A stretch of 64,000 nt of DNA. Origin: Bacilli bacterium. GTDB taxonomy: Bacteria; Bacillota_I; Bacilli_A; RFN20; CAG-826. The stretch spans positions 3,747 to 67,746 of the forward strand of contig CAAFZT010000063.1 of the NCBI GenBank assembly GCA_900767605.1, written 5' to 3'. Made by a program: the position numbers and the translations under genes. The notes beneath the pieces were generated by a model. That model made no database searches and was not told the origin of the DNA. It was given only the letters and a program-made list of their open reading frames with translations. Below, piece after piece: positions 33,197 through 59,090 of this stretch (position 1 is its first letter; each line of letters starts with the position of its first letter).

Positions 33197-33285
33197 TTTC
33201 ATCCTCCTGCCACCGAGACATCTCAAACCACGTTTTCATAAAAATCTTGTTTTTGAGGATTGCCATCACAAAAATAATTATAACG

Positions 33286-37351: not shown

Positions 37352-38000
37352 CTATTTCAGCGTCTCCCAATACCCTTTTTTGTTCGATCCAACGCGTTGG
37401 ATGTATCCGCTTTTCTTAAGGAAGGAAATATTGTTCTGAACGGCGGTCTCGCCTAATCTCAACTCCACCATGAGACGAGGCCGAGTGATGTTCGGGTTGT
37501 CCCGAATCAGTTCAAGCATCTTCTGTTGGGTTTGATTGAGCGTATCCCTCACTTTATCCCTCACTTTATCCCTCACTTCCGGTTGATGGACGAAATTAAA
37601 TGGGATGGTGACACGAATCGAATTTTCCTCAATGGCAATGGCGTCTTCCCCATAGAACGAGGTGATTTTCGGAACTCCCCTGCCACTGGTCTCGGAAATG
37701 TGGAGTTGGTTGATGATCTTGGCGAGGCTTTTGTTGACGGGTACCGAATCCCCTCGATAGAACCCGAGCATGGTCTGCTCCGGCGGCAACGGGCCGCGGG
37801 AGAGGATCTCCAACCTATCAGAATACATCGTGAACGCGGGGCCATAACCCGTCACCCATTTATTGTGGAGAATTGCGTTGAGTGTTGCTTCAAAAAAGGC
37901 ACTGGGTTCAAACAGTGGGACGTCCTTGCGTTCTACTTTTCGGTTCGTCTCGTCCGCTTGAATCAGATTGATGGTGTCGCCGCAATCGATCAGCTTATCC
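37352..38000 (-). pseudogene. 5'-truncated AlbA_2-family gene (HATPase_c_4-like domain plus wHTH only)
   Basis: 'ATLNAILHNKW', 'SETSGRGVPKI', 'IRVTIPFNFVHQ', VRDK x3 linker and a wHTH are present, but there is no AlbA_2 N-terminal domain. The track ORF extends to 38257 only by reading through the 3' end of the neighbouring gene. Confidence 0.6.
37543..37578 (-). repeat. 3 x 12-bp in-frame tandem repeat (VRDK linker)
   Basis: TATCCCTCACTT x3 on the plus strand. Confidence 0.9.
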
Positions 38001-38189
38001 AGAGAAACCGGGACACAACAATTGCCGAATTCCCTCACCGAATACAAGGATCTATTCTTCCCTCGTTTGCAAATGAGATTTAAAACAATGGGGATTCCAT
38101 GCGCGCAAAAACCCGGAAAGCGGTTGCAAAGCGTCCATGGAAAAGATGCCGTCCCGAGTTGGGGGCGGCATAGAAATTCGTTTATCCGT

Positions 38190-39095
38190 TTAGTAACTCG
38201 CAGGATCAATGCCAGCAAAAGACAGCGAAATCGATACGGATCCGTTTTGGCAGGCATCCTGGTTTTCCATCTCGGTACCCTCTAACCAGACCACCCCATA
38301 ATAATAACGGGTGCCTTGGGCGGTTAATTGGCCCATATATTGTTTGCTCGTAAACGGGGTGAATTGGTTTGGCATCGCGAAGTCCTCGACGTAGAAATGA
38401 TTGAAGGTCGAATCATCGCTATAACGGGACGTAGATACGGTTCGATCGGTATTTAAAATCGGCGAATCGATATAGGTATCTAACACTGCGTCCTTCTTCT
38501 TTTCAAAGACCATCTTGCATTCGCCTAGATAGGCTCCATTCGCGTCTTTTCGGTCGTAGTTCTTCTTATTTACTTCTAAAACCGATACGCGGGTCCATTG
38601 GGATAACATAACATCCGCGTCTTTTTCTTTATCCACGGGATTAATCGAAGTCCCGTTACATAAAAATAATGGCAATTCTGTAGTTCCGGGGTTTGTTACC
38701 GAAAACCGGAACAAGGTGTAATAATGATAATCCCCTGTCACGTTTCTAACGTTATAGCACTTCCCGTTTAATTGGGATGAATCCATCCAATCGGGACGAT
38801 AGATGGTTCGTCCGTCTTTGCTGGATACATCCTTCGTCACGGATTCGTTGGATAACAAGGTTTGATGGACGCCACTATGGTCTCCATTTCCTTCTTGCAT
38901 CACGGCTTTCGGATCGGATATCGAATCAATCGATACCCTTAAATGGCCATAGTTGCCATTGACGGTAATCGAAGAATAATTCATCGATACCGAGCGGTTG
39001 ACGTTAAACCAAGCAAGAGTGGAAACCGCCGCGGTGGATAAAGAAGCCACGATTAAAACCGAGATGGCAATCAGGGCTTTGTTGGGATTTTTCAT
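38190..39095 (-). CDS. TasA/CalY-class secreted protein with SipW-cognate signal (array member 3)
   Basis: 'SLSTAAVSTLAWFNVNRS' resembles TasA/CalY 'GGGTFAYFSD'. Family C-terminal block 'YYYGVVWLEGTEMENQDACQNGSVSISLSF'. Confidence 0.7.
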   Translation of the reverse strand: MKNPNKALIAISVLIVASLSTAAVSTLAWFNVNRSVSMNYSSITVNGNYGHLRVSIDSISDPKAVMQEGNGDHSGVHQTLLSNESVTKDVSSKDGRTIYRPDWMDSSQLNGKCYNVRNVTGDYHYYTLFRFSVTNPGTTELPLFLCNGTSINPVDKEKDADVMLSQWTRVSVLEVNKKNYDRKDANGAYLGECKMVFEKKKDAVLDTYIDSPILNTDRTVSTSRYSDDSTFNHFYVEDFAMPNQFTPFTSKQYMGQLTAQGTRYYYGVVWLEGTEMENQDACQNGSVSISLSFAGIDPASY

Positions 39096-39136
39096 CGCGG
39101 CGGTTTCCTTTCTTCTTGAATTATAAGTAGAGATAA

Positions 39137-39162
39137 GCGGGAGAGGGAATCCCCTCCCCCGC
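39137..39162 (-). terminator. GC-rich intergenic hairpin (attenuator or partial terminator) after the putative major subunit gene
   Basis: Minus strand reads GCGGGGGAGGG-GATT-CCCTCTCCCGC (one mismatch). The downstream U-tract is weak. Confidence 0.45.
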
Positions 39163-39191
39163 TTCTAGACGTAGGGTTTTAACGAAACGGA

Positions 39192-40097
39192 TTAGGCGCC
39201 AGCGCCAACAGTCTCGATACCAGTGAGTTTCAACGTGACGTCAACAGCTCCGCCAGCAGCCGTGTCTTGATTGTCGGATTCGGTGCCTTCGAGCCAAACG
39301 GAGACAATATAAGCTTTCGTAGCATCCGCGGCTAATTCGCCCAAATAAGCAACGTTGCCCGTAGTCTTGGTGACACCAGAAACAACCGGCGCAAAGTTCC
39401 CAACTTTATGAGTCGCAGTCACAACGTTGGCAATGGTGGCTTTATTTTCAGTTGTCACAGCCTTAGAGGCGATACCTTGTCCTTTATTGGCGCCAGAATC
39501 CTCATTTTCAAAGATAACCTTCAAGGTGGCGTCAGCGACATTATCGGCGGTCGGAATCTTTGTGCTATCCTTCGCTTCTAAAACGGCGACACGAGTCCAT
39601 TGAGCAAGCGCAGCATCGGCCTTGTTTCCGGCCGCATTGGCTTTAACCGCGGTTCCTTCATTGAAGAAGACGTGGGTCTTAGTATTACCGGTATTCTTCA
39701 CCGTGAAATAGAATTGGGTGAATCCGTCCGTAGCTTCCTTGACGGAATAAACTTTAGCATTGTTCCCTGCAACGCCTTTCCAGTCCGGCTTATAGAATTT
39801 CTTTCCATCAACAGAGGAGACGTCCGTGGTGAAGGATTTCGCCGAGGCTAGCGAAATCGCATCGGCAAAAGATCCGTCCTTATCGTTGTAGTTGGATTGA
39901 GCATTTAATCCGCCATCGGTGATACCGCCAAGGGTAACTTGGAGTTTAGCGTTGGAGGATTGAGCAACAATCTTGGAATAGGTGAGGGTCGCACTGCGGT
40001 TGGTGGTGAACCAAGCGAAGGTGCCGGTAGCGCCGGCGACCGCGGTTCCGGCCGTGAGGACGGAGAGAGCGAGGACGAGTTTAGCTTTCGTTTTCAT
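39192..40097 (-). CDS. TasA/CalY-class secreted protein with SipW-cognate signal (array member 2; Ala/Thr/Gly-rich, candidate major subunit)
   Basis: 'AVAGATGTFAWFTTNRS'. C-terminal 'YIVSVWLEGTESDNQDTAAGGAVDVTLKLTG'. Confidence 0.7.
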   Translation of the reverse strand: MKTKAKLVLALSVLTAGTAVAGATGTFAWFTTNRSATLTYSKIVAQSSNAKLQVTLGGITDGGLNAQSNYNDKDGSFADAISLASAKSFTTDVSSVDGKKFYKPDWKGVAGNNAKVYSVKEATDGFTQFYFTVKNTGNTKTHVFFNEGTAVKANAAGNKADAALAQWTRVAVLEAKDSTKIPTADNVADATLKVIFENEDSGANKGQGIASKAVTTENKATIANVVTATHKVGNFAPVVSGVTKTTGNVAYLGELAADATKAYIVSVWLEGTESDNQDTAAGGAVDVTLKLTGIETVGAGA

Positions 40098-40140
40098 TTG
40101 TTTTGATTTCCTTTCAATGAATGTATGAATTGAAGATTAA

Positions 40141-41100
40141 TTAAGCGATGGCTTTCGAGAGGGCATTGATTTCGAGATTGATGTCCACCTTGCCGCCTTG
40201 GGCGGAACGTTGGTCATTATTCTCACTGCCTTCGAGCCAGACGCGGACCACATAATAGGAGGTGGTTCCACTTGCAATCGTGCTGAGATAGTTCTTGGAA
40301 GATGTGTTGGAGTCTTTGCTCGTATTGGCAAATACTCCTTCGTCCCCTAGAACATAATGGCGATCGCTATCTTGATAGGATGCAAGATCCAATTTGTCAT
40401 CCGTAATTAGGTTCTTGGATTGGATGAATTGGGTCTTATCCGCGGTTACTCCCGTTGCTGGCTTCGTTTCGAACGTCAGGATGGGAGTGAGTTCGCTAGA
40501 AACGATATCATCGTGCCTAGCAATCGGGGTTAGAGGATTTTCTCCTTGGAGAATTGCCACACGAGTCCAGCTGGTCGCGGCCTCATTGGCTTTCTTTTGG
40601 GCTTCGTCGCTATCATCGTGAGCAAACACACGGGTGCCTGCGGTCAGATAGACTTCAAACGGACGATCCGTTTTGGCGTTATATCCGGCTTCTCCTTGTT
40701 TAATCCCCTTGTGGGTTAACGAGAAGGCGTATTCGGCGTAATAGGTATTGGCGCCACCTTCGGAGACATCATTGACGCGGACGGGGGCTTTGTCGTTGCC
40801 GATTTCCATTCCCCAGTCCGGAGAATAGAAGGTCTTGCCGTCTTTACTACTCACATCGCTTGCGGTGCTTGTGGCTCCAGAAATCGTTTGGGCTTTGTCA
40901 TTTCCGGTAGCCGTCGCTCCATCCAAGCTAATGAGTTGGCCGCTTAATTCCGCGGAGCGATTTTGCATCGTGACCGAGGAATAGGCGAGACTCACCGTCC
41001 GGTTCACTTGGAACCAGGCGAAGGTGGATGCGCCTGCAGCCGCCAAAGCGCCAACTGAGAGGACGGAGATCGCCATCAAAGCTTTGGTTTTGCCTTTCAT
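40141..41100 (-). CDS. TasA/CalY-class secreted protein with SipW-cognate signal (array member 1)
   Basis: 'LAAAGASTFAWFQVNRT'. C-terminal 'YYVVRVWLEGSENNDQRSAQGGKVDINLEI'. SD is GAAAGGAAG. Confidence 0.7.
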   Translation of the reverse strand: MKGKTKALMAISVLSVGALAAAGASTFAWFQVNRTVSLAYSSVTMQNRSAELSGQLISLDGATATGNDKAQTISGATSTASDVSSKDGKTFYSPDWGMEIGNDKAPVRVNDVSEGGANTYYAEYAFSLTHKGIKQGEAGYNAKTDRPFEVYLTAGTRVFAHDDSDEAQKKANEAATSWTRVAILQGENPLTPIARHDDIVSSELTPILTFETKPATGVTADKTQFIQSKNLITDDKLDLASYQDSDRHYVLGDEGVFANTSKDSNTSSKNYLSTIASGTTSYYVVRVWLEGSENNDQRSAQGGKVDINLEINALSKAIA

Positions 41101-43693: not shown

Positions 43694-46600
43694 TCAGGCA
43701 TTGGTATAGACAACCGTCCCGTTCAGGGAGATGGTGACCGTCATGGTGCCGGATGGAGTTTGGGTGATAAGAATCGTAGGATGAGGATCTTGTTGGTCTT
43801 CCCCTGCTGCAAGAAAGCCCTGAATCGTTTGGTAGCCATCCCCATCAGGATCAACCAAGGTTAAGGTATATTGGAAGGTAGCTTCCGTTTGAGAAGTTCC
43901 ATCCGCCTTCTTGTTTAAATAGGAATAAGAGAATCCCACTAGGACCTTAGAGGCATCGGGATCGTTCCAGTGGATCGAATCTAGTTCGCTTGAATCGTAT
44001 GCAGAACCTTGTTTCGCCTCTCCTTCTGCTTCATCGCGGTAGATTGGAACGATCGAAGTATCGGTGAGCTCGGAGGTATCTTCCACCCAAGACGAATCTT
44101 CGCCTTGATAATAACGATGGATTTCCCGTGGACGAGAGGTCGTGGAGGTCGTCCCTGTCAATAAATTCTCCTTAGTTACGGTTTCATCGAGGAAATCCAC
44201 ACGGGCTAAGGTTCGCTTATTCACGGAGTAATCATAGAAATGCAATCGACGTAGGGTCTTGGTTTTCCTAGAAAATGGCTCCGGTTCCTTTAAAGCCTCT
44301 CCAGTGGGGGACTCCAATGCGATTCCATCCCCTTTAAACGAAGGAGAAACGGAATCATCGACGCCGCCGACTTCCACTTTCTGGTCTTCGGGGGCGGAAT
44401 CTCGTTGCAAGGTCAAAGTCCCCACATATCCCGATCGAACCAAGACGCAAACCGAATCGGTGGGGTCTACCGACGAGGTGCCAGTCGCCACAAGGGATAC
44501 ACCCAAGGGGAAATAAAACGATTCTTGGATTTCGTGGATGAACTCCGTAACGCGGGTACGGTTGATTTCTTTGGCGGACGCCCCAATGTCAAGGTACATC
44601 AAATAGCAGCCAACACCACCGGAGACGGAGCCCAAGGCATATTCCCCTTCATTGACGGGGACTTCGAAGTAATAGGCTTTCTGGTATAGCAAATCGTTTC
44701 GCTTCATGATGCGAGCGACATCGAAAATCGAGGAATATCCCGTGGGCTTGCTAGGGGACTTCCCATAGGATTCTTCCATAGGGGTTACCCCGTCCATTTC
44801 TAGTTTCTCTCCCTTGTCGCTTAAACGGTAGGGCAAGGAATAGAAGCCGTCTTGATAGGCGTAAACATAGGGGTATTCGGGGTGATCGTCGTTACGAAAG
44901 ATCGCTTGGATTTGTCGGATTTCATGAACCTTGGACGCGTTCCCCAAATCGCGGATAATTTGATGCAAAGAAAAGAAACTGTTGTTGCGTCCCTCGCCGC
45001 CAGAGCCAGAATCAAAATACGTTCCCGACATGAAATTGATGCTGCCCTTCTCCTTCAATTGGAAGTTAATGGAATTAGCGGGCATTTGATAGTCCGTATG
45101 GGTTTGGTTATTGATGGAAACCCAAGGGGCGGTGACGAGATTATCCGTAGAGAGGTTTGCATCCATAAAATGGATGCCCCAGATGCTTTTGCTTCCTTTC
45201 AAGCTATTGTTCCAAAGCCCATTGGTGACTTCGGAATATTTGCTTAAAACCGTGTCGTCGCCCTCGGCCGTCCAAACGGTTTTGCCGTTGATGTTCTTCG
45301 AAGAAATCGTGGCATTTTTCCCTTGATTATTGATTGTTTTGACGTTAAAAAATCCCTCGCTATCGGAATAGCAATCCGAGATATTTTCAGCGATTTCGAA
45401 TTTGCCGAAACGAAAATTAACGTGGTGATAATCGTACTTTTGCAGATAAGAATCCTTATAAGTGGATCCCCCAATCAGATAACCGGTGTTGTTCTCCGTC
45501 GGCTCGTACTTCTTCGCTCCATATTTCGAGGCTTCCTCTTGTGTCGTGTAAGCGTTAATCGGAGAGAAGGTGTTTTCGTTGCCAGAATAATCGACCTTGG
45601 ATTCGGAACGGTCAAAAACTTCGCGGCTTATCGTTTCAAAGGGATTCGTAGATGCTCTCACTTCGACACGTTCGGAACTAGTGGTCCCCTGAAGAGAAAC
45701 GAGGTTGACGCTGGAAGTCTCTCTGGAAGCCGTCCAGTTGCTATTATTGAAGGTAAGATAGTAATCGCCACTCCAACGAGAGTAATAAAGAGAGACCGTG
45801 GAGCTAAGGGAAGACGAAGAAAAATACAAATTCGTATTCGAACTCGTGGAAACGCCTACGCTTGCCGTCGGATTAAACAAACCCGAAACGGAAATATCAA
45901 GATAATACCGGGCGGAATCCACCACGGTATAGATATTGGCCTGATTTTGGTTGATTTCAATGGTCCACCTCGTGGCTTTCCAGGGATTGGTGGTATTCTC
46001 CACCCCGTTTCGGCTATCGTTGATTTTCATATAATTGGAGCCAGAAGAAATCAAAAACGTGGAACCGCTGGTAAATTGGGAGCGTTCCACTAACGACCAC
46101 CCGGCAGTCGCCCCCGTCCCTGTTTCTGAGGGAACGGTGAACCGGAGATAATAGGTCTTCCCGTTAAGGATCGAAGAGATTTTGGAAGAGGGGCCCACGT
46201 ACCAGTCGGTGGCGCGAGAAGAATCTGTTGTAGTTTTCAGTTTTCCCGCTTCGTTAACCAAATAGTATTCCGCACCGTCGCGGACTTGGGAAATGGTGCC
46301 ATAATCGCCGGAAGATGGCATTTTCCAAACGTAAGCGTTCTCCGCGTTTTCTTCATAGCCAAGGGTGCCGTCGCTTCGAAGAGAAAGGAAGTAATCGCTT
46401 CCCCCATTGGAATAAACGATGGCTGAATAATAGTGTTTTTCGACCTCTTCTCGATAAATGTTAGCGCGTTGGTAGTACCCACCATCGAGCAACGTATAGA
46501 CGCCGTAAGTTTTCGATGCATTCTCCTTATCGCTTCCATTGTTCCGGTAAAGGAAATTGTAATTCCCGATTTTGGGGTTATAGGTCGCGGAATGGAAATC

Positions 46601-47737
46601 CGAGTTATAAAGGCGAGCCTCGCCAACTCCACGATAATTGTTTTCCCTTTGGTCGTTCCCGTTTTGCCAATTACCCTTATCTGTTTCGGTTTTCACTCCA
46701 GAAGAAGAGATGTTGTAAGTGCGATCATAATAATAAGGATGGGAACTCGTTCCGACATCGCAATAATTATCGCGGATATCCTGCAGGCGGGTGTTGATGG
46801 CCTTCATGTCGATGCCCCCGCCCCAACCAGCTTTCGAACCCTGGCCATTGACGACGAAGTTCTTCTGCTGGGTTTCGGGGCTAGTGACGGAATAGGACAT
46901 TTTCTCGACCGCGTTTTCGTACTCGGGCTCGCAATACCCCACTAGGGAATATTTGGAGATGCAAGAAAAAGAGGGGGATCCCGAAGTATAGGCATGGGCC
47001 TCGTTTTGGATTTTTAGGGCCGAAGAAGCCGAACTGGAATTGGATATCGCAACGTCAGACATCACTCCGTTGACATATCCCGCGGCCAAACCCATCAGGA
47101 CTTGGTTTTGTTCTCCCGAAGCGGAGTTTGTATCCGAGACGGTTGCGTCCATCAACGTGAAATTCTTGATTTCGGGAGTAATCGAAGCATAGGGAGAAGA
47201 GCCTGTTACTGCGGGCTTATATTCCCCGACTACGCCAAAAAGACCGAGGATATGGAAATAACTATCGCCTTGATCGGAGATGCTTTTGACGGCGCTAGGG
47301 GCATTCAACTCGCTTCGGGTATTGGCGATTTTTAGTCCTTTGATGGTTTTGCCGTTTCCATTGAACGTCCCCACGAAAGGGTTTTCCGTTGTCCCGATGG
47401 GGGGCAACGTCAAAGCGGAGGCGTCAAAATCGTCCCCAAGTTCAAAATGGAATTGCCGCTTCAGCTTCCCCGATTCGTCTGCCTGGTTGAAATGGCCAAG
47501 GTACTGTAGCCATGCAAGGTTATAAAGATGCAGGGGGCGAGTGATGCCATAGGGCTTTTCCGCCGTTCCGTTTCCGTAAGCAAAATAGGAGCCATAGCTT
47601 TTCCCAATGAAGGCCTCCTGGATGATGTTTTTGTTTTTGAACCAGGCGTAGGAAAAAGAAGCTAACGACGCGGTGAGGGCGATGAAGGAAGACAAAACGC
47701 CGGAAAAGAGTAATTTAAAGGTTTTATCCTTCATCAT
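43694..47737 (-). CDS. Giant (1347 aa) secreted protein with SipW-cognate signal
   Basis: 'LTASLASFSYAWFKNKN'. 'NPFVGTFNGNGKTIKGLKI' is a motif common in large Firmicute surface proteins. ATGA overlap with 47734..48636. Confidence 0.7.
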   Translation of the reverse strand: MMKDKTFKLLFSGVLSSFIALTASLASFSYAWFKNKNIIQEAFIGKSYGSYFAYGNGTAEKPYGITRPLHLYNLAWLQYLGHFNQADESGKLKRQFHFELGDDFDASALTLPPIGTTENPFVGTFNGNGKTIKGLKIANTRSELNAPSAVKSISDQGDSYFHILGLFGVVGEYKPAVTGSSPYASITPEIKNFTLMDATVSDTNSASGEQNQVLMGLAAGYVNGVMSDVAISNSSSASSALKIQNEAHAYTSGSPSFSCISKYSLVGYCEPEYENAVEKMSYSVTSPETQQKNFVVNGQGSKAGWGGGIDMKAINTRLQDIRDNYCDVGTSSHPYYYDRTYNISSSGVKTETDKGNWQNGNDQRENNYRGVGEARLYNSDFHSATYNPKIGNYNFLYRNNGSDKENASKTYGVYTLLDGGYYQRANIYREEVEKHYYSAIVYSNGGSDYFLSLRSDGTLGYEENAENAYVWKMPSSGDYGTISQVRDGAEYYLVNEAGKLKTTTDSSRATDWYVGPSSKISSILNGKTYYLRFTVPSETGTGATAGWSLVERSQFTSGSTFLISSGSNYMKINDSRNGVENTTNPWKATRWTIEINQNQANIYTVVDSARYYLDISVSGLFNPTASVGVSTSSNTNLYFSSSSLSSTVSLYYSRWSGDYYLTFNNSNWTASRETSSVNLVSLQGTTSSERVEVRASTNPFETISREVFDRSESKVDYSGNENTFSPINAYTTQEEASKYGAKKYEPTENNTGYLIGGSTYKDSYLQKYDYHHVNFRFGKFEIAENISDCYSDSEGFFNVKTINNQGKNATISSKNINGKTVWTAEGDDTVLSKYSEVTNGLWNNSLKGSKSIWGIHFMDANLSTDNLVTAPWVSINNQTHTDYQMPANSINFQLKEKGSINFMSGTYFDSGSGGEGRNNSFFSLHQIIRDLGNASKVHEIRQIQAIFRNDDHPEYPYVYAYQDGFYSLPYRLSDKGEKLEMDGVTPMEESYGKSPSKPTGYSSIFDVARIMKRNDLLYQKAYYFEVPVNEGEYALGSVSGGVGCYLMYLDIGASAKEINRTRVTEFIHEIQESFYFPLGVSLVATGTSSVDPTDSVCVLVRSGYVGTLTLQRDSAPEDQKVEVGGVDDSVSPSFKGDGIALESPTGEALKEPEPFSRKTKTLRRLHFYDYSVNKRTLARVDFLDETVTKENLLTGTTSTTSRPREIHRYYQGEDSSWVEDTSELTDTSIVPIYRDEAEGEAKQGSAYDSSELDSIHWNDPDASKVLVGFSYSYLNKKADGTSQTEATFQYTLTLVDPDGDGYQTIQGFLAAGEDQQDPHPTILITQTPSGTMTVTISLNGTVVYTNA

Positions 47738-48636
47738 TTCCCCTCCTTCACCGAAAGAGTGAAATCCCGGTAATAAGCTACATACCCTAGACGCTCCCCA
47801 TTAGAAGAAAGCATCCCCTCCTCAAAAAGGGCGTTGCCGATATTGTCCGTATAAAGGCTCGTAACGGCTTCCGCGTTATAATCCAGCAATAGCCAAACAT
47901 TTCTCGCCCCGTCTAAGGTCAATTGAACCTCATTTTCTCCTGAAGGGATTTCCAAATATCCTTGCGGGGCATAGGTCAAAGTCACCGGGGCGGTGGAGAC
48001 GTCCACATCTACAAATCCCTTGACCGCCTTTTTCTTTTGGATGGATAAGCAAGAATAGGTTTGTCCTTCTTCCGTCGTCACTTCTTGTAGCGTTTGGTTG
48101 ATCTCCGAGTCGGCGTAAGAAGCAAAGGCGATAACCGTGGAGAGGGGGTTGGTGAGGGAATTGGCTTTAGCAAAACTCTCCTCGAAAGTCGAAGGCCAAT
48201 CCCAAGAAGAAGAATCCCCTTCTTGGCGGGGTTCTAAAATCGTTGGACGGTCGGAACGGGCGAAGGCAACAACACGTTCAAAGGAAGCCAAAACAGGGAT
48301 TTGAATGAGCATCCGATAGCTCGATTCTCCCAAAAGGTCTTTATCGCGATATGCCCCGATATCAAAGGTGTTATCTGCGATTTTAGAAAAATAATAAGGG
48401 TCACCCTCTTGGTAGGAAGCGGGGCGAACGTAGCGATAGTAGGTAGGCGTTCCAAGGATCGCGGGGTCACGGGCCACGATTTGGGAATAAGTCGTTTTGG
48501 CAAAGCGGTTGGTGGTGAACCAGGCAAAGGTGGAAACCCCAATCGTGGACAATACCAAAGTGCCTAAAACTGCGCTGGCGGCAAAACGAATGCGAGCCAT
48601 ACGACGGCGTTTTAATGCGGTTTGAATGTTTGCCAT
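47734..48636 (-). CDS. Secreted protein with SipW-cognate signal
   Basis: 'VLSTIGVSTFAWFTTNRF'. No SD; the start codon lies 2 nt after the riboswitch aptamer. Confidence 0.65.
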   Translation of the reverse strand: MANIQTALKRRRMARIRFAASAVLGTLVLSTIGVSTFAWFTTNRFAKTTYSQIVARDPAILGTPTYYRYVRPASYQEGDPYYFSKIADNTFDIGAYRDKDLLGESSYRMLIQIPVLASFERVVAFARSDRPTILEPRQEGDSSSWDWPSTFEESFAKANSLTNPLSTVIAFASYADSEINQTLQEVTTEEGQTYSCLSIQKKKAVKGFVDVDVSTAPVTLTYAPQGYLEIPSGENEVQLTLDGARNVWLLLDYNAEAVTSLYTDNIGNALFEEGMLSSNGERLGYVAYYRDFTLSVKEGK

Positions 48637-48638
48637 AA

Positions 48639-48720
48639 GGGTCTAGTGGCAACTGGCTGTCTAAAAACTAGACCCTTTAGTTTTGCGTCACCGAATCGCT
48701 TCGGTTTTGCTTTTAACCCC
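48639..48720 (-). promoter_or_regulatory. c-di-GMP-I (GEMM-I) riboswitch aptamer
   Basis: Minus strand reads AAAGCAAAACC-GAA-GCGA-UUC-GG-UGACGCAAAACUAAAGGGUCUAGU...ACUAGACCC. This matches the GEMM-I core 'GGCAAACC-[GNRA hairpin]-GACGCAAAGC' plus a 9-bp P2-type stem. Confidence 0.65.
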
Positions 48721-48723
48721 ACT

Positions 48724-48752
48724 AAATTATCATTGTGTTTCCCTTTTTTCAA
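48724..48752 (-). promoter_or_regulatory. Sigma-A-type promoter driving the riboswitch
   Basis: Minus strand reads TTGAAA-17 nt-TAATTT, ending about 5-7 nt before the aptamer. Confidence 0.55.
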
Positions 48753-51055: not shown

Positions 51056-52294
51056 ATGGAATTATTCAAACGAGAAAACATTTTGAAGCGGATTCGTCCC
51101 TTCTACCAAGACACTTCTTTAATCAAAGTCATCACGGGAATCCGAAGATGCGGCAAATCCTCGATCATGAAATTGATTAGTCAAGAGCTAGAAGAAAATA
51201 ACGGGGTTCCCTCCTCTTCGGTCTTTTTCCTCGACTTGAACTCCCGCCCCTATAAGCGAATCAGCAAGCCCGATGAATTAGAAGCCCTGATCGAAACCCA
51301 TACCAAAGGGATCGAGGGAACGAAATATCTTTTCATCGATGAAGTTCAAAACGTCAAAGGGTTTGAGACGATTTTAGAATCCTTCCGTTTGGAAGGGGAT
51401 TTCAATTTCTTCATCACTGGAAGTAATTCCTATTTGCTTTCCGGGGAACTCATCACCAAATTAACGGGCCGATACCTGGAATTTGAAATGGGGACCTTAA
51501 CCTTCGATGAATATCTGGCGATGAAATCCTTTTATGGGCAGGCTCTTGCCCCGTTAGCGGAAGAATTCCAATCCTTCCTCCAAGACGGGGGATTCCCCCA
51601 AACGATTTTCTTATCTGATTCTTACGCGCGAAAAGAATACTCCAAAAACATCATTCACGAGATTTTCTTAAAGGATATCAAACGAAACCACCGCATCCGG
51701 AACGGGGTGTTATTCGAACAAGTTCAAAACTATATTCTCCATAACTTTGGATCGACCACTTCTATCACCTCACTAGCCGCCTATTTATCGAAAGCAAACG
51801 GAGTCAAAGTATCCGTCCAAAGCGTATATAACTACATCGAAATATTGCTGAATGCGAAGATCATTGAACGGTGTTCCCGAAAGGACATGAAGACAAGACG
51901 AGAACTTAACGGCGGAGAAAAGTATTACCTCGCCGATATGAGTTTCTATTTTGCTACCCAGACCGATAATCGTATTCCCTACGGGGCGTGTTTAGAAAAT
52001 ATCGTTTATAACTATGCAAAAAACAAGGGATATCACATCTCCATCGGCAAAATTGGTAAGTTCGAATGTGACTTCATCTTCCGTAATTCCATCACGGGGG
52101 ACTATTCCTACGCCCAGGTTTGCTACGCAATGACGGGGCAAGAAGAAACCGAGGAACGAGAATATCGACCCTTGGAATCCATTTCCGATAATTACCCGAA
52201 ATATATTCTAACGACGGACACCTTCCTTCAAAGGCGAAACGGCATCCTCCACGTGAATGTCTATGACTTCATGTCCAAGGGATTGATGTTTTAG
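51056..52294 (+). CDS. AAA_14 / DUF4143-type ATPase (COG1373-like)
   Basis: 'GIRRCGKSS' Walker A, 'FIDEVQNV' Walker B. Overall size and C-terminal region are typical of the family. Confidence 0.75.
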   Translation: MELFKRENILKRIRPFYQDTSLIKVITGIRRCGKSSIMKLISQELEENNGVPSSSVFFLDLNSRPYKRISKPDELEALIETHTKGIEGTKYLFIDEVQNVKGFETILESFRLEGDFNFFITGSNSYLLSGELITKLTGRYLEFEMGTLTFDEYLAMKSFYGQALAPLAEEFQSFLQDGGFPQTIFLSDSYARKEYSKNIIHEIFLKDIKRNHRIRNGVLFEQVQNYILHNFGSTTSITSLAAYLSKANGVKVSVQSVYNYIEILLNAKIIERCSRKDMKTRRELNGGEKYYLADMSFYFATQTDNRIPYGACLENIVYNYAKNKGYHISIGKIGKFECDFIFRNSITGDYSYAQVCYAMTGQEETEEREYRPLESISDNYPKYILTTDTFLQRRNGILHVNVYDFMSKGLMF

Positions 52295-52463: not shown

Positions 52464-53798
52464 ATGAAGTTTGGAACCGAATCGGAAACTCTAGAATTCA
52501 AAGAATCAACAAGCGAACTTCACCAAGCGGTGGAATCGATTGCCGCTATTTTAAATAAGCACGAATCTGGGAAGATCTACTTTGGAATTGACGATGCAGG
52601 CAATATCAAAGGACAGGTCATCTCAGACAGCACCTTTAAAACGGTATCCGACGCCATACTGCGTGACATCGAGCCGCGAATTATCCCGACGATCGAAAAA
52701 GAGGAACAGGACGGCAAGACCATCTTAAAAGTCAGTTTTAGTGGAACACAAAAGCCCTATTCCGCATTCGGTAGATTTCTTACTCGGGTTGGCACCCAAA
52801 ATCGGGCGATGACTCGAAATGAATTAAGAAAGCTCATTAAAGAGGAAGACTATTCCTTCCCTTGGGAAAAAGAAGTCTACGACATGACTTTGGACGATTT
52901 TGATGATCAAGCCCTATACAATTATTATCAAGAAGCCGTTGGCTGCGGACGTCTTACGTTGCCTAGTTACGACAAAGAATCCCTCCTTACCGTTTTGGAA
53001 CTTTATAAAAACGGGAAATTCAACAACGCCGCGTTTGCCTTATTTGGAAAAAACGCGAATATCAAATTAAAAGTAGCCTGTTTTGCCACGGACGAAAAAC
53101 TAACGTTCACCGACCTCAATTCGATACGCGGCAACATCTATAACTTGATTCAATTCGGTGTTACCTACATCCTGAATCATATTGATTGGCGGATATCCAT
53201 CGGCCTAAAGCGGGAAGAAACACCCGAAATTCCCGTTCAAGCTATCCGCGAAATTATCGTTAACGCGTTTGCCCACGCGATGTATCAGCCGACCCCAGAA
53301 ATTGAAATTAACATCCACCCGGGCCATATAACCATCTTTAACCCCGGCTCTTTCCCAGATGATTTGACTCCACGGGACTTTGTTACCGGCACCCTTTCCT
53401 CCATCAAGCGCAACCCCTTGATTCTTGACGTTTTGTACCGGTGCAAAAACGTCGAAAAAACAGGAACCGGATTTAAACGAGTGGACAAGATGTGCATCGA
53501 AAGTGGAGTTCGTTGGGATAGCCGCAACAGCGCATATGGTTTCTACTTCACCTTCTATCGGAATAGACAGCAAGCGCCAAAAGTCATAGAAACAACCGAA
53601 CGCCCAAAACTTTCGGATATCGAAATGTTTGTTTTCACGGAAATTAAAAACAACCCAAAAATTTCCCGAACAGAGTTGTCAAATACAGTAGGAAGAAGCG
53701 TACGTTCCATTCAGCGCATCGCTAACACGCTGGTGGAAAAAGGCTATTTGATCCGAATTGGCAACAATCAATTTGGTTATTGGGAAGTAGTTCACTAA
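52464..53798 (+). CDS. AlbA_2 / HATPase_c_4-like / wHTH protein (COG2865-like)
   Basis: 'GTESETLEFKESTSEL...HESGKIYFGIDDAGN', 'REIIVNAFAHAMY', 'EKTGTGFKRV'. C-terminal 'IKNNPKISRTEL...GYLIRIGNNQFGYWEVV'. Confidence 0.75.
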   Translation: MKFGTESETLEFKESTSELHQAVESIAAILNKHESGKIYFGIDDAGNIKGQVISDSTFKTVSDAILRDIEPRIIPTIEKEEQDGKTILKVSFSGTQKPYSAFGRFLTRVGTQNRAMTRNELRKLIKEEDYSFPWEKEVYDMTLDDFDDQALYNYYQEAVGCGRLTLPSYDKESLLTVLELYKNGKFNNAAFALFGKNANIKLKVACFATDEKLTFTDLNSIRGNIYNLIQFGVTYILNHIDWRISIGLKREETPEIPVQAIREIIVNAFAHAMYQPTPEIEINIHPGHITIFNPGSFPDDLTPRDFVTGTLSSIKRNPLILDVLYRCKNVEKTGTGFKRVDKMCIESGVRWDSRNSAYGFYFTFYRNRQQAPKVIETTERPKLSDIEMFVFTEIKNNPKISRTELSNTVGRSVRSIQRIANTLVEKGYLIRIGNNQFGYWEVVH

Positions 53799-54494: not shown

Positions 54495-55850
54495 ATGTAT
54501 TTTAAAAGAAAAATCGATGCAAAATTAGACGAGTGGCTCCGTAAAAAAGATTCATCCCCCGCGTTAGTCGCCGGGATTCGTCAATGTGGCAAAACCGAAA
54601 CGATTCGTGAATTCGCTAAGCGAAACGGAATGCAACTAATCGAAATCAATTTTTGGACCCATCCCGAATATCGTTCTGACTTCGAAGGGGATTTAGATAT
54701 CGTTACTTTGATGTCCAATCTTTCTTTGCGTTTCCCAAGTGCTTCTTTTGACCCGGACAAAACGCTTATTTTCTTCGATGAAATCCAGGATTGCCCCCGA
54801 GCAAGGCTGGCATTTAAAAATTTCAAAAACGATGGTCGGTTTCATGTAATCGGTAGCGGATCCTATCTCGGAATCAATGGATATGTCATCGGAGACGCTA
54901 CCCCCGCTCCAACAGGATATGAAGACGTGATCCCCATGAAGACCATGGATTTTGAAGAATTCTTATGGGCATCTGGATATAGCAATCAGCAAATCGATTC
55001 CTTGTACGAATATTTCATCTCCAGAAAACCCCTTCCCGAAAACGTGAATCAACTCTATTCCGACCTCTATTTAAAATACACCTGCATCGGCGGATTCCCC
55101 AAAGTCGTCAAGGAATATTTCAAGACGAAACGAATCGTGGAAGCTTATCGCGTCCTTCAAAGCACGATCTTCGATATGAAAAGCGACTTCGGGAGACGAA
55201 AAGACAAAAACGGATCCCCGTTATTTAAGGCATCCGAGGTTTCCCGAATCCAAAGCGTTTTCGATTTAATTCCGACCTTCTTGGCCAAAGAAAGCAAACG
55301 CTTCATCGTTTCCAAAATAGACGGTGGGACGCAATACGATAAAAATGACGCGATCGAATATCTCGAACAGGCCCATATCGTCTCCAAAGTCTATAACCTT
55401 GAAATTCCTTCTCTTCCCTTGGCAGGGCAGAAAATCACTTCTCAATTTAAGCTTTTTCCCGAGGATATCGGCATCGTCACCGCGATGTATGGAATCGATA
55501 CCGTCGCCGCGATTTATCGAGGCGATTTAGGGCAAGGAAAGGGGGCCATTTACGAGGCCTTGGTCTTTGATTCCTTAAGCAAAGCGGGAATCGAACCCTA
55601 TTATTTTGCAAAAAGCAGCGGACTAGAAATCGATTTTGTCATCGCTTATCAAGGTTATCCGACTTTAGTGGAATCCAAAGCGACGACCGGGAACGCCAAA
55701 TCAAGCAAAACAGTGATGAAACATACGGAGCATTATGGCAAAACCAAATGCATCAAAATCGGCAGCTACAACATCAGCGAGGAAGGAGATATTCTCACCA
55801 TTCCTCACTATTTAACCTTCTTATTAGGACGTACCTCTTACGATTTTTAG
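54495..55850 (+). CDS. AAA_14 / DUF4143-type ATPase (COG1373-like)
   Basis: 'GIRQCGKTE' Walker A, 'FFDEIQDCP' Walker B. SD is AAGGAGG. Confidence 0.75.
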   Translation: MYFKRKIDAKLDEWLRKKDSSPALVAGIRQCGKTETIREFAKRNGMQLIEINFWTHPEYRSDFEGDLDIVTLMSNLSLRFPSASFDPDKTLIFFDEIQDCPRARLAFKNFKNDGRFHVIGSGSYLGINGYVIGDATPAPTGYEDVIPMKTMDFEEFLWASGYSNQQIDSLYEYFISRKPLPENVNQLYSDLYLKYTCIGGFPKVVKEYFKTKRIVEAYRVLQSTIFDMKSDFGRRKDKNGSPLFKASEVSRIQSVFDLIPTFLAKESKRFIVSKIDGGTQYDKNDAIEYLEQAHIVSKVYNLEIPSLPLAGQKITSQFKLFPEDIGIVTAMYGIDTVAAIYRGDLGQGKGAIYEALVFDSLSKAGIEPYYFAKSSGLEIDFVIAYQGYPTLVESKATTGNAKSSKTVMKHTEHYGKTKCIKIGSYNISEEGDILTIPHYLTFLLGRTSYDF

Positions 55851-56877: not shown

Positions 56878-57072
56878 ACCATCCTAATGACCATCCTAAT
56901 GACCATCCTATTAGAAATATCTATATAGTGTAGTTTGTTTATCCGACCATAAAAATAGTATTTTTCATCGATAAATGGCCGAATATTACAATTTTTTCTT
57001 ACTTCAAATTAGTTGTCTTTCATTTCAAAAAAGAATGACCGTCCTATTGACCATCCTATTAAACCATCCTAT
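56878..57072. repeat. Two triplets of a 12-bp ACCATCCTA-type repeat flanking the promoter region of 57103..58806
   Basis: ACCATCCTAATG x2 then ACCATCCTATTA (56878-56913). GACCGTCCTATT, GACCATCCTATT, AAACCATCCTAT (57037-57072). Confidence 0.9.
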
Positions 57073-57102
57073 ATTAAATTTACATTGCGAGGCACCCAAG
57101 AA

Positions 57103-58806
57103 ATGAATGAATCAAAAGAGTTGGAATTTAAGGTTGTTTTAGACCGAAAGCACCCCGAACACTGGATGAAAACCGTGTGTGCCTTCGCCATGACTAACGG
57201 TGGCAAACTCATGGTTGGTTATCAGGATGACGGCGCTTTTGTTGGTGTCCCCTCCGAAAATGTTGACGACGAAGTTCAATACGCCGTCAATCAGTTCCGC
57301 TATCTTTCTAAGCCCATGGTTGCATACGACGTTCGTTACGAAGAACGCCCAGAATTTCCAGGACGGAAGGGGATTATTTTCCAGATTCAGCCCCGCAAAG
57401 AAATCACTTGGCTCACCCCTCATGATCATAGTCCTCTCGCCTATATTCGCGAGGAAAGAGCAACTCTCCCCGCCCCCGTCGAAGTATTGCAAGAACGGCT
57501 GCTGGAATCCTTAACCACGCCTTACGATTCCGTTAGCATAGGAGTTAAACGAAGCGAGGTATCTTTTTCCCTTCTTTCTGATTTATATGCCAGCAAGCAC
57601 GAGGGGCGACCTTTGACCGAACGAGATTTAGCTTCTTTTGGTTTGGTGGACAAGAATGGCTTTTTAACCATAACTGGCTACGCATTTTGCGATGATAGCG
57701 ACTATTTCAACGCCCAAGTTCTTTGCACCACCTGGCCCGAAACCGATAAAGGGGGGCGCAATTATCTCGACTCCAAGACATTTTCGGGGTCCATTTTGCA
57801 ACTAATCGAAAAAATGATGGATTACGTTCACGGAGTTATGTTCTTTCAATTTGGTGGGGTCAAAAAAGGGATGTTTCGCGAAGAGGACGGTTCTTTTTCC
57901 ACCGCTTCTTTGCGCGAAGCTTTCGTGAACGCCGTCGCTCACCGAGACTATCGCCTCTCCGGGCCGATTTCTTTGCAATGTTTCCCTGACCGAATTGAAA
58001 TCACCTCCCCTGGATCCATGCGTTCTTTAAAGTCGGTAACGAATATGCCTCTAATTGGGGTGGAATCGGATCGAAGAAACCAGACGATTTCCGCGATGCT
58101 CGCCCGAATCGGCTTGATGGAAGAAAGAGGGTCGGGATTTGATTTGATTCTAAACGACTACTCCTTATTAGATGAGCGTTATACTCCGCGCATCACCGCG
58201 ACCAAAACCTACTTCACCTTATCGCTTAAAAACAAAAAATACGATTACGGTTCCCTTTTAGGAGTCGCTAATGGAACCAGTTCTCTCGTCCACGTTCCCA
58301 ACACCCCAATGTTTTCTTCGCGCGAATCTCTTTACAAAGAAAATCTAAAATATCCCCTTGTCGAAGATTTGATCCGTCAAAATCCAAACGCCAAATTTGC
58401 CGATATTCAAAAAGGAACCGGATTAACTCTAGGTGGAGCAAAATACTTAATCACAGCCATGAAAAAAGCTTGTTTGATCCGGAGGGAGGGAAATCCCGTC
58501 AATGGTCATTACGAAGTCGTTCAAGACTCCGATCGCCCCGCGGATTTTCTCCGTCTTGACATAGAAAGCCGTACCAAAGCCGTCGCGTGGTGCGTTCGTT
58601 ATTTTATGGTTTCTTCTACTTACGATCCCAGGTGCACTTCCATTGAATTAAAAGGGACATTGGAGGCTTTTGATGGCACTTATTTAAGCAACGGGCAATT
58701 CAAAGGCGCAATGCTTTTATCGGGATATAAACCTCAAAATGAAGAAGACTTAAATTGGGTTTTTTCCGTCTCGGAGAAATCTCCCGCCTTTCATCTCAAA
58801 AAATAG
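57103..58806 (+). CDS. AlbA_2 / HATPase_c_4-like / wHTH protein (COG2865-like) with an extended C-terminus
   Basis: Start moved to ATG 57103 ('MNESKELEFKVVLD', the typical AlbA_2 N-terminus). 'REAFVNAVAHRDY', 'EERGSGFDLI'. The wHTH contains 'IRQNPNAKFADI'. Confidence 0.7.
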   Translation: MNESKELEFKVVLDRKHPEHWMKTVCAFAMTNGGKLMVGYQDDGAFVGVPSENVDDEVQYAVNQFRYLSKPMVAYDVRYEERPEFPGRKGIIFQIQPRKEITWLTPHDHSPLAYIREERATLPAPVEVLQERLLESLTTPYDSVSIGVKRSEVSFSLLSDLYASKHEGRPLTERDLASFGLVDKNGFLTITGYAFCDDSDYFNAQVLCTTWPETDKGGRNYLDSKTFSGSILQLIEKMMDYVHGVMFFQFGGVKKGMFREEDGSFSTASLREAFVNAVAHRDYRLSGPISLQCFPDRIEITSPGSMRSLKSVTNMPLIGVESDRRNQTISAMLARIGLMEERGSGFDLILNDYSLLDERYTPRITATKTYFTLSLKNKKYDYGSLLGVANGTSSLVHVPNTPMFSSRESLYKENLKYPLVEDLIRQNPNAKFADIQKGTGLTLGGAKYLITAMKKACLIRREGNPVNGHYEVVQDSDRPADFLRLDIESRTKAVAWCVRYFMVSSTYDPRCTSIELKGTLEAFDGTYLSNGQFKGAMLLSGYKPQNEEDLNWVFSVSEKSPAFHLKK

Positions 58807-58851: not shown

Positions 58852-58880
58852 TTGACAGGAAAAAGGAGTATCGATAAACT
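58852..58880 (+). promoter_or_regulatory. Sigma-A-type promoter driving the riboswitch
   Basis: TTGACA-17 nt-TAAACT, ending about 7 nt before the aptamer. Confidence 0.6.
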
Positions 58881-58886
58881 ACGAAT

Positions 58887-58980
58887 CGATAAAGGCAAAA
58901 CCTGGGTAACCAGGCGACGCAAAGCTACAGGGCCCCGAAGGAGGCAGCCAGCTCCCGAGAAGTGGAGTGGCTTCTTTTTG
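58887..58980 (+). promoter_or_regulatory. c-di-GMP-I (GEMM-I) riboswitch with terminator-type expression platform
   Basis: AUAAAGGCAAAACC-UGG-GUAA-CCA-GG-CGACGCAAAGCUACAGGGCC matches the GEMM-I core, including the GNRA hairpin. It is followed by AGCCAGCUCC-N8-GGAGUGGCU and UCUUUUU (58945-58979). Confidence 0.8.
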
Positions 58981-59090
58981 GGCAATTGAAGCGTTGTACT
59001 CCCTTCAAAAATTGGGCAAAATATCTTATCTCTCCTTTAGGAGAGTTCATTTTCGTGTGTTATGCGCGCGAACGAAAGGAGGCACTTCCT

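Follow-up and report, generated by a model that had tools for sequence, protein, structure and literature searches.

A predicted translational cyclic di-GMP riboswitch of class I with an 11-nucleotide expression platform and no Shine-Dalgarno sequence in a gut Bacilli bacterium

Introduction

Class-I riboswitches for cyclic di-GMP (c-di-GMP-I or GEMM-I; Rfam family RF01051) include ON-type elements such as Bc2 (Bc2-cap), which controls an adhesin, and translational control by members of the class has been discussed for Vibrio (PMC11218506). A class-II c-di-GMP riboswitch precedes the pilin operon of Clostridioides difficile (PMC11477304). In the Vc2 aptamer the key ligand contacts are G20, A47, and C92 (PMC6140456, PMC11218506); recognition extends to both c-di-GMP and 3',3'-cyclic GMP-AMP (cGAMP) in RNAs with a G20A change and in some aptamers with a natural A20, one of which comes from Clostridium beijerinckii, and the GEMM-Ib aptamers of Geobacter prefer cGAMP (PMC6140456). 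On the side of translation, messenger RNAs (mRNAs) devoid of a Shine-Dalgarno (SD) sequence depend on the local absence of structure around the start codon (PMC3121790). Here we analyze a stretch of 64,000 nucleotides (nt), hereafter the window, from a Bacilli bacterium (GTDB lineage Bacteria; Bacillota_I; Bacilli_A; RFN20; CAG-826; assembly GCA_900767605.1, contig CAAFZT010000063.1, positions 3,747 to 67,746), in which a GEMM-I aptamer at 48645-48721 on the minus strand lies just upstream of the SD-less start codon of a gene for a 300-residue protein. We propose with moderate confidence that the element is a class-I c-di-GMP riboswitch that acts on translation initiation as an ON switch, by means of an 11-nt tail that competes with the aptamer for one strand of its second hairpin. 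From the anatomy of the leader and its conservation we infer the ligand, the direction of the switch (ON), and its target (translation rather than RNA stability).

The aptamer

The whole window was scanned with cmscan at the Rfam gathering thresholds (35 bits for RF01051), and two matches were returned, both to this family: one at 48645-48721 on the minus strand (55.9 bits, E value 3e-8, full model 1-87) and one at 58884-58959 on the plus strand (58.9 bits). The first had been proposed in a sequence-only reading of this DNA, which quoted the minus strand as AAAGCAAAACC, GAAGCGAUUCGG, UGACGCAAAACUAAAGGGUCUAGU, 19 nt, ACUAGACCC, UU, and AUG; the quoted letters agree with the sequence, and the covariance-model score upholds the assignment to GEMM-I. 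The parts of the aptamer are as follows, the last five being placed by the Rfam alignment.

48645-48721, minus strand: c-di-GMP-I (GEMM-I) aptamer, RF01051 (cmscan, and covariation in related aptamers)
48711, minus strand: aptamer position 20, an A
48690-48705, minus strand: aptamer hairpin 1, with the loop GCGA (GNRA)
48684, minus strand: equivalent of A47
48651-48682, minus strand: aptamer hairpin 2
48648-48650, minus strand: conserved GCC, the 3' junction of the aptamer

Read along the minus strand from 48752 to 48628, the leader consists of TTGAAA, 17 nt, TAATTT, AGUGGGGUUAAA, the aptamer, GCC, ACUAGACCCUU, and AUG GCA AAC. The aptamer letters, broken at the structural elements, are A GC AAA ACCGAA GCGA UUCGGU GAC GC A AA AACU A A GGGUCUA GUUUU UAGAC AG CC AGUU GCC. 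Hairpin 2 is aligned by Rfam as AACU.A.GGGUC-loop-GAC.AG.CC.AGUU, its last base is 48651, and the conserved GCC follows.

The fold is well supported by comparison. Across 16 related aptamers 93.1% of the aligned cells are paired and both sides change in 9 of 19 pairs; 0 of 500 shuffles equalled the observed values, and registers slid out of place were at most 40% paired. The loop of hairpin 1 is GCGA in the window, GUGA in its closest relatives, and GCAA, GUAA, or GGAA in more distant orthologues, all of them GNRA tetraloops, and at the docking site in hairpin 2 the letters UCUAG stand in place of the canonical CUAAG receptor. We regard it as very nearly certain that the element is a genuine GEMM-I riboswitch, and its aptamer is an unremarkable example of a very familiar class. 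The sequence-only reading had called its core slightly degenerate on two counts, and these fare differently: the change from AAAGC to AAAAC merely reflects normal covariation of a base pair, and AGC for GGC places an A at Vc2 position 20, which contacts one guanine of the ligand, and matters more than was claimed.

The expression platform

In the sequence-only reading the aptamer ended 2 nt before the ATG, with a last stem (GGGUCUAGU with ACUAGACCC) that closed at 48639. The Rfam alignment places this end elsewhere. The last aptamer helix ends at 48651, 15 nt upstream of the ATG, the conserved GCC ends at 48648, 12 nt upstream of it, and what is left is an 11-nt tail, ACUAGACCCUU. The supposed stem is in fact a pairing of this tail with the 5' strand of hairpin 2 and is exclusive with the aptamer. 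The segments that take part in the competing pairings are as follows.

48667-48677, minus strand: 5' strand of the alternative (anti-aptamer) helix, AAGGGUCUAGU, which is also the 5' strand of hairpin 2 (minimum-free-energy folds)
48637-48647, minus strand: 3' strand of the alternative helix, ACUAGACCCUU, spanning -11 to -1 of the start codon (folds and duplex energy)
48628-48653, minus strand: a weaker second sequestor, GUUGCCA (48653-48647) with UGGCA(A)AC (48635-48628) (reading of the sequence)

The alternative helix comprises 11 base pairs (bp) between ACUAGACCCUU and AAGGGUCUAGU, and it cannot coexist with the aptamer because AAGGGUCUAGU is the 5' strand of hairpin 2. The tail resembles the 3' strand of the same hairpin minus its AG bulge (UAGAC-CC as against UAGAC-AG-CC). 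Folding calculations return the alternative helix as the structure of minimum free energy (-37.8 kcal/mol; z = -3.4 relative to shuffled sequences), and in a slightly longer RNA the total is -43.7 kcal/mol, compared with -36.6 kcal/mol when the aptamer pairs are enforced, a gap of 7 kcal/mol that in our judgement is plausibly within reach of ligand binding. The duplex of the hairpin 2 5' strand with positions -11 to +4 reaches -18.6 kcal/mol, a value that 0 to 0.4% of windows drawn at random from these loci attain, and the probability that -12 to -5 is unpaired rises from 0.13 to 0.79 once the aptamer is enforced. Pairing of the aptamer 3' strand with the start region amounts in the window and its closest relatives to -6.5 kcal/mol, no better than chance (random fraction 0.38). 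The weaker sequestor GUUGCCA/UGGCA(A)AC is a local remnant of a start-codon sequestor used by SD-bearing orthologues (see below), and the small GCCA/UGGC hairpin dominates the ensemble when the aptamer is enforced.

No terminator-like site was called between 48645 and 48600, where the alternative helix is followed by UUAUGGCAAAC, and the earlier statement that no terminator intervenes between the aptamer and the ATG thus holds. No G+C-rich hairpin with a U tract lies between the aptamer and the gene, and the platform is not of the intrinsic-terminator type. It had been described as unusual, and it is so in being very compact, SD-less, and free of a terminator; its logic is the usual one of alternative pairing, and not that of an aptamer abutting the start. 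An upstream open reading frame (ORF) with termination-reinitiation at the UAG at -9 to -7 was considered and ruled out, as there is no start codon in frame with it.

The start codon and the missing Shine-Dalgarno sequence

48634-48636, minus strand: ATG start codon of the gene for the 300-residue protein (placed by the N-termini of homologues)

A HMMER search of 1.84 billion representative proteins yielded 19 relatives of the 300-residue protein, most of them with 27-38% identity. The N-termini of 15 homologues at 19-29% identity align to the ATG at 48636, with MAD[FI]RSKRLK opposite MANIQTALKRRR, and farther along the homologue sequence MAD[FI]RSKRLKRIK...ATFAWFTTN aligns with MANIQTALKRRRMARIRF...STFAWFTTN in the window. 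Because even distant homologues begin at this point, the ATG at 48636 is the true start, as had been assumed. The alternative of a downstream start at Met13 (48600) was rejected, given that the homologues align with Met1; Met13 likewise lacks an SD.

Pairing of positions -22 to -3 with the canonical anti-SD sequence was computed at +0.5 kcal/mol, which ranks among the 3 weakest of the 39 window genes. The median over these genes is -8.6 kcal/mol, and 30 of them lie at or below -6. The window organism clearly uses SD sequences and the 300-residue gene has none, in keeping with the earlier remark that no purine-rich SD precedes it. With no SD to be masked, the alternately paired element is the segment from -11 to -1 plus part of the AUG, and the further claim that any control would have to act on initiation is sustained by the lack of a terminator together with a true start that has no SD. 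The motif CTAGACC was also considered as a common signal before SD-less starts and was set aside: its 4 copies in the window, against 3.1 expected, are what chance would give, and the second case has no real start.

Conservation within the window clade

The closest relatives of the window locus form with it a clade of 13 sequences, which includes 5 close homologues (91-94% amino acid identity, from gut metagenomes) and 7 sequences from a scan of metagenomes. All members carry the same leader. There are 0 substitutions from -53 to +11 in the 13 sequences, whereas 47 of 175 upstream columns vary, and in the coding region of the first six clade sequences the changes by codon position number 64:20:18, mainly at third positions. 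Between -53 and +11 the sequences differ only by a single base in the length of the U run within the hairpin 2 loop and by an 8-nt deletion in a single low-coverage contig. This contig (L027; ERZ780100 NODE-2612, coverage about 2) lacks 8 nt near locus position 455 (CCACTAGA/ACTAGACC, the placement being ambiguous between CC repeats), a loss that reduces the stretch before the start to GCC-CTT-ATG and removes the greater part of the anti-aptamer helix's 3' strand. Either the assembly is in error here or the contig represents a constitutive variant that occurs in nature.

Orthologous loci and their sequestors

More distant orthologues were collected from a set of species-representative genomes (16 loci) and from metagenomes (8 further loci); where their titles are informative, they name uncultured Bacilli, Mollicutes, Erysipelotrichaceae, and 'Bacillales UBA743'. 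An RF01051 match of 39-60 bits lies just upstream of the orthologous gene in all 31 loci scanned, and the 5 close relatives, which were aligned rather than scanned, have the same aptamer sequence. Where measured, the distance from the end of the match to the start codon is 0-30 nt, approximately 17-30 in the distant orthologues and 0-8 in the window clade.

Nearly all distant orthologues have a spacer of 20-30 nt with an SD (AAGGAG, AAGGA, or AGAGG) 4-9 nt before the ATG, and locus L021 is the clear exception among these lineages. In the predicted ligand-free state of the SD-bearing lineages, the region around the start codon is paired with an invariant aptamer strand, (C)AGCCAGUUGCC, made up of the hairpin 2 3' strand plus the GCC junction. 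The energies of this pairing range from -9 to -19 kcal/mol and rank in the top 0.2-10% when set against random windows of these loci. Partners of the strand include GGCAAC-AUGGCU, AGCGAC-AUGGCUGA, GGC-AUGGCA, and CGGC-AUGAUUGACUAUCG. Because this sequestor pairs the start region and places the SD in its hairpin loop, the regulated element in these lineages is the start codon, and because sequestor and aptamer are mutually exclusive, ligand should turn expression ON. Compared with its SD-bearing orthologues, the window clade shares the aptamer, the position of the promoter, the downstream gene family, and a sequestor built from an aptamer strand; it differs in that it has no SD and masks -11 to -1 by a copy of the 3' strand paired to the 5' strand. 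The comparison indicates that the window clade has lost the SD and swapped the strand of hairpin 2 that is used for sequestration.

In two relatives this aptamer strand seems to form part of a terminator, an arrangement that once more implies an ON switch. These are the other riboswitch of the window and L021, in which by eye the aptamer 3' strand pairs with -21 to -5 and is followed by UUCUUUUUU, a terminator-like arrangement that a simple scan did not call. In nine loci (L009, L010, L020, L029-L032, L035, and L036) the first five codons are AUGAUUGACUAUCG (MIDY...), complementary to a longer aptamer strand, GAUAGCCAGUUGCC, at -13.4 kcal/mol, and the conserved 'MAD/MID' N-terminus of the protein may be partly shaped by the RNA sequestor. 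Six loci (L006, L007, L012, L013, L016, and L020) are filed under metagenome-assembled genomes ('cleanbin') of Alistipes communis, Prevotella sp., Sodaliphilus sp., Hallerella sp., Bacteroides uniformis, and Escherichia coli; the filing of a Bacilli-type locus under such names almost certainly reflects binning contamination or mislabelling, and the host is taken to be an uncultured gut member of Bacilli or 'Mollicutes'.

The promoter and the transcript start

48747-48752, minus strand: -35 box TTGAAA (read from the sequence and from conserved spacing in relatives)
48724-48729, minus strand: -10 box TAATTT, in clade relatives TAATCT (sequence and relatives)

The aptamer had been said to begin a few nucleotides after a TTGAAA-17-TAATTT promoter. 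Both hexamers are present, 17 nt apart, and a TTGnnn-16/17-TAnnnT promoter occurs at the equivalent place in 20 of 20 distinct related leaders, which corroborates this claim; a simple promoter scan did not call the TTGAAA/TAATTT pair, TAATTT matching at only 3 of 6 positions. The end of the -10 box lies 11-14 nt before aptamer position 20 in all lineages, and because of this conserved spacing the transcript is taken to begin a few nucleotides before the aptamer, the conserved promoter implying a start at about 48716-48720.

Helices that use 48721-48726 hinge on this predicted start. One of them, a long-range helix P0 between UUUAGUG.GGUU (48726-48715) and codons 5-9 (48622-48611), is present in the minimum-free-energy folds and shows one double change from G-C to A-U between the window and its relatives. 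It is unproven, and as most of its 5' strand is probably untranscribed it was not adopted. A second helix, P1 (YUAGU/ACUAG), was left aside on the same transcription-start grounds.

A model for ligand-dependent initiation

In the ligand-free RNA, ACUAGACCCUU would pair with AAGGGUCUAGU, and the resulting 11-bp helix would destroy the aptamer and bury -11 to -1; the weaker pairing GUUGCCA/UGGCAAAC, or GCCA/UGGC, could cover the AUG when hairpin 2 forms. Binding of a cyclic dinucleotide would lock hairpin 2 and the GCC junction in the aptamer, leaving the tail ACUAGACCCUU and the A/C-rich first codons (AUGGCAAACAUUCAAACC) single-stranded and the AUG free. In the absence of an SD, initiation would depend on the local lack of structure, so that translation of the 300-residue protein would rise and that of the overlapping 1347-residue gene probably with it. 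Given that SD-less mRNAs need an unstructured start (PMC3121790), toggling the structure of the start region would suffice as a mechanism. Because just 4-14 nt of further transcription separate the completed aptamer from the competitor strand, the switch is more likely to be thermodynamic and reversible than kinetic.

Several observations weigh against this model. Folding with the aptamer enforced still pairs two bases of the AUG, its U and its G, in the small GCCA/UGGC hairpin, and the opening of the AUG relies on the ligand engaging the GCC, which goes beyond what the energy model represents. With ligand bound, too, no more than 12-15 nt lie between the end of the folded aptamer and the AUG, and a short terminal pairing of GGGUU with GACCC (-7 to -3) is possible; each of these could be a hindrance to the 30S subunit. 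The accessibility computed from ensembles is mixed and noisy across the orthologues, for which the energy model often misses the canonical hairpin 2. The window clade amounts in effect to two lineages, and its platform is backed by conservation and energetics, without covariation. Finally, control of the whole operon is uncertain given that the second gene has its own SD.

Alternative explanations

A first alternative concerns the ligand. In the window aptamer the equivalent of A47 (48684) and the 3' GCC (48650-48648) are retained, and position 20 (48711) is an A opposite the first G of the consensus GGC in the Rfam alignment, as it is in 17 of 19 distinct aptamers of the gene family. Since G20A RNAs and some natural A20 aptamers bind both dinucleotides, and the Geobacter GEMM-Ib type prefers cGAMP (PMC6140456), cross-recognition of 3',3'-cGAMP by the window aptamer is possible. 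It is a further step to suppose that the same architecture responds physiologically to 3',3'-cGAMP or to both dinucleotides, which we consider unlikely: two aptamers in the same gene context (L017 and L019) and the other riboswitch of the window carry a G, and the alternation of G and A in one gene context makes c-di-GMP the more likely common signal. Nor was a cGAMP synthase seen in the 64-kb window, outside of which most of the genome lies. An ON switch responding to c-di-GMP would have its mirror image in an OFF switch, in which the bound, compact aptamer, possibly closed by GGGUU/GACCC ending at -3, would block the 30S subunit and the ligand-free RNA would be translated once the ribosome had melted the hairpin. 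The closeness of the aptamer helices (15 nt) and of the GCC junction (12 nt) to the AUG would suit this arrangement, as would the possible 5-bp pairing of the predicted 5' end with -7 to -3 and the partial pairing of the AUG in the aptamer-enforced ensemble. We judge it improbable, because the 11-bp helix of the ligand-free state, at -18.6 kcal/mol, abuts the AUG and is a far stronger block than any structure of the bound state, and because the SD-bearing orthologues, and apparently the terminator-type relatives too, build their inhibitory structure from an aptamer strand, which is ON logic.

The structural switch might instead act mainly on the transcript, through ligand-dependent access of an RNase or through Rho-dependent premature termination of the exposed, untranslated leader. 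Without an SD, transcription and translation would become uncoupled with any change in ribosome loading; with a separate SD in front of the second gene, operon-wide control would need an effect of polarity or stability; and control of RNA stability by a c-di-GMP-I riboswitch is reported for Vc2 (bioRxiv 10.1101/617340). The competing helix sits exactly on the initiation region, however, nothing in the sequence points specifically to a Rho-loading or RNase site, and such effects would be downstream consequences of the same switch, all of which leaves a primary action on the transcript with very little probability in our estimate. The chance that the platform is simply decayed, its SD lost by a small rearrangement and the gene weakly expressed or unregulated, is smaller again and close to negligible. 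An 11-nt tail does replace the SD-bearing 20-30 nt spacer of the orthologues, and L027 has suffered a further deletion of 8 nt, but a stretch from -53 to +11 that is free of substitutions in 13 sequences taken from different samples, an intact ORF under purifying selection, and a new tail that is a near-perfect complement of an aptamer strand are not what random decay would be expected to leave. A different speculation concerns the bound state of the proposed ON switch: the aptamer, lying 12-15 nt upstream of an SD-less AUG, where the duplex of SD and anti-SD normally sits, might help to recruit or position the 30S subunit as a standby or docking element. This is a long shot; if true, an RNA fold bound by a second messenger would functionally replace an SD.

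The putatively regulated operon

43694-47737, minus strand: gene 2, 1347 residues, N-terminal SYAWFKNKN, with a strong SD of its own (GAAGGAGGGG)
47734-48636, minus strand: gene 1, 300 residues, predicted to be membrane-anchored or secreted and beta-rich, with the N-terminal module STFAWFTTNR

The start of gene 2 overlaps the stop of gene 1 (ATGA). Neither protein has a Pfam or NCBIfam match. For the 300-residue protein, a profile search of the PDB gave nothing significant, the AlphaFold2 model has a pLDDT of 60.5, and Foldseek returned no match against the PDB below an E value of 0.01. Five proteins of the window, namely the products of genes 1 and 2 and three tandem paralogues of about 300 residues (38190-41100, minus strand), have an N-terminal module in common, and their bodies are unrelated. 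The module consists of a basic stretch, a hydrophobic segment, and the motif [GS]T[FL]AWF[TQN][TV]NR..(S/T)(L/T)(T/A)YS.I(V/T), which is degenerate in the 1347-residue protein (SYAWFKNKN). It resembles the SipW-type signal peptides of TasA and camelysin (GT[FW]A[AY]F), a likeness that NCBIfam did not confirm. A constant N-terminus on variable bodies is what pilins or fibre subunits would look like, and the switching ON of surface or fibre proteins by c-di-GMP would be in line with what this messenger does in general, as in the Bc2-cap adhesin and the C. difficile pilin operon.

Other elements and genes of the window

The other c-di-GMP-I riboswitch occupies the region 58852-59093 on the plus strand. 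It consists of a promoter (TTGACA-17-TAAACT), an aptamer (58884-58959, 58.9 bits) with a G at position 20, and a terminator-like stem, AGCCAGCUCC...GGAGUGGCU, followed by UCUUUUU. As the stem overlaps the aptamer 3' strand, an ON switch is predicted here as well; downstream of it come an SD (AAAGGAGG) and, at 59091, what is probably a TTG start. The second gene behind this riboswitch (60105-61184, plus strand) starts with the ATG at 60105 (MKKNPSKKTTHSKALLGIGALSLGLTLSSLATATYA) and is broken by an in-frame TAG (60213-60215), which occupies the very codon that should encode the W of the N-terminal A-W-F motif (...ATATYA*FDIV...). The TAG may be a nonsense mutation or the sign of a pseudogene, a sequencing error, or a site of read-through. 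Because the gene starts at 60105 and is interrupted by the TAG, the ATG at 60255 is no genuine SD-less start.

A long array of genes on the minus strand (2053-25236) codes for many proteins without a Pfam match. Several of them carry TGF[AS][AGL]W[VIA][IS] after a signal-like segment (GTGFSLWAS, STGFAAWVI, ATGFAAWVIS, GTGFAGWVIS, and STGFAGWIIG), a pattern that points to another family of processed proteins, of surface or pilus-like type. The window is also rich in genes of the defence-island or mobile type. The domain HATPase_c_4 is found in 4 proteins (28803-30161, 37352-38257, 52464-53798, and 57013-58806), 3 of which also have SLFN_AlbA_2; the remaining one, at 37352-38257, has HTH_24 in its stead, and its ORF overlaps the end of a neighbouring paralogue gene. 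Further genes of this type code for two AAA_14/DUF4143 ATPases (51056-52294 and 54495-55850), a Fic/DOC protein (27318-28367), and a Schlafen-group-3 helicase-like protein (33247-34779).

Significance and comparison with known systems

On the proposed model, a very common sensor would control a gene here through just 11 additional nucleotides and in the absence of a ribosome-binding sequence, although SD sequences are the norm in this lineage. The orthologues provide a natural before-and-after series, from an SD with a mask by the 3' strand to no SD with a mask by the 5' strand, in which the rebuilding of an expression platform can be studied. The locus links cyclic-dinucleotide signalling in poorly known, uncultured gut Bacilli with uncharacterised surface proteins that carry a pilin-like N-terminal module, and if the A20 aptamers prove bispecific, it bears on whether cGAMP signalling exists in these gut organisms. 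For synthetic biology, the element offers a minimal and portable ON switch.

In its aptamer the window element is like the RF01051 riboswitches Vc1 and Vc2 of Vibrio cholerae, Bc1 and Bc2 of Bacillus thuringiensis, and Cdi-1 of Clostridioides difficile: it has two hairpins with a GNRA loop on the first, a GACGC-A junction, and a 3' GCC, and the gene whose 5' leader it occupies is of the surface-protein or adhesin type. It differs from all of these in its platform of an 11-nt tail, its start without an SD, and its A at position 20. What is unusual at this locus is precisely the 11-nt platform, an SD-less regulated start in an SD-using genome, and the swap of the hairpin 2 strand relative to the orthologues. 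The add adenine riboswitch of Vibrio vulnificus is a translational ON switch of the anti-sequestor type, in which a ligand-stabilised aptamer and a sequestor of the initiation region share a strand. The window switch would resemble it in the shared strand and in being likely reversible and thermodynamic, and departs from it in the element that is masked, an SD in add and an SD-less region directly 5' of the AUG here. The predicted ON direction is shared with Bc2 (PMC11218506). The GEMM-Ib aptamers (Geobacter Gs1761, and the bispecific Cbe 1-2 of Clostridium beijerinckii) likewise have an A at the equivalent of Vc2 G20 (PMC6140456), whereas the gene context of the window element is different and some of its orthologues have a G at this position. 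The other riboswitch of the window pairs a classical terminator with an SD, neither of which the element at 48.6 kb possesses. Among the characterised c-di-GMP-I riboswitches of Firmicutes, intrinsic terminators and long platforms are the rule (PMC11218506, PMC11477304), and against this background the window element stands apart as a terminator-free leader in which the sensor and the start codon are separated by a single 11-nt strand.

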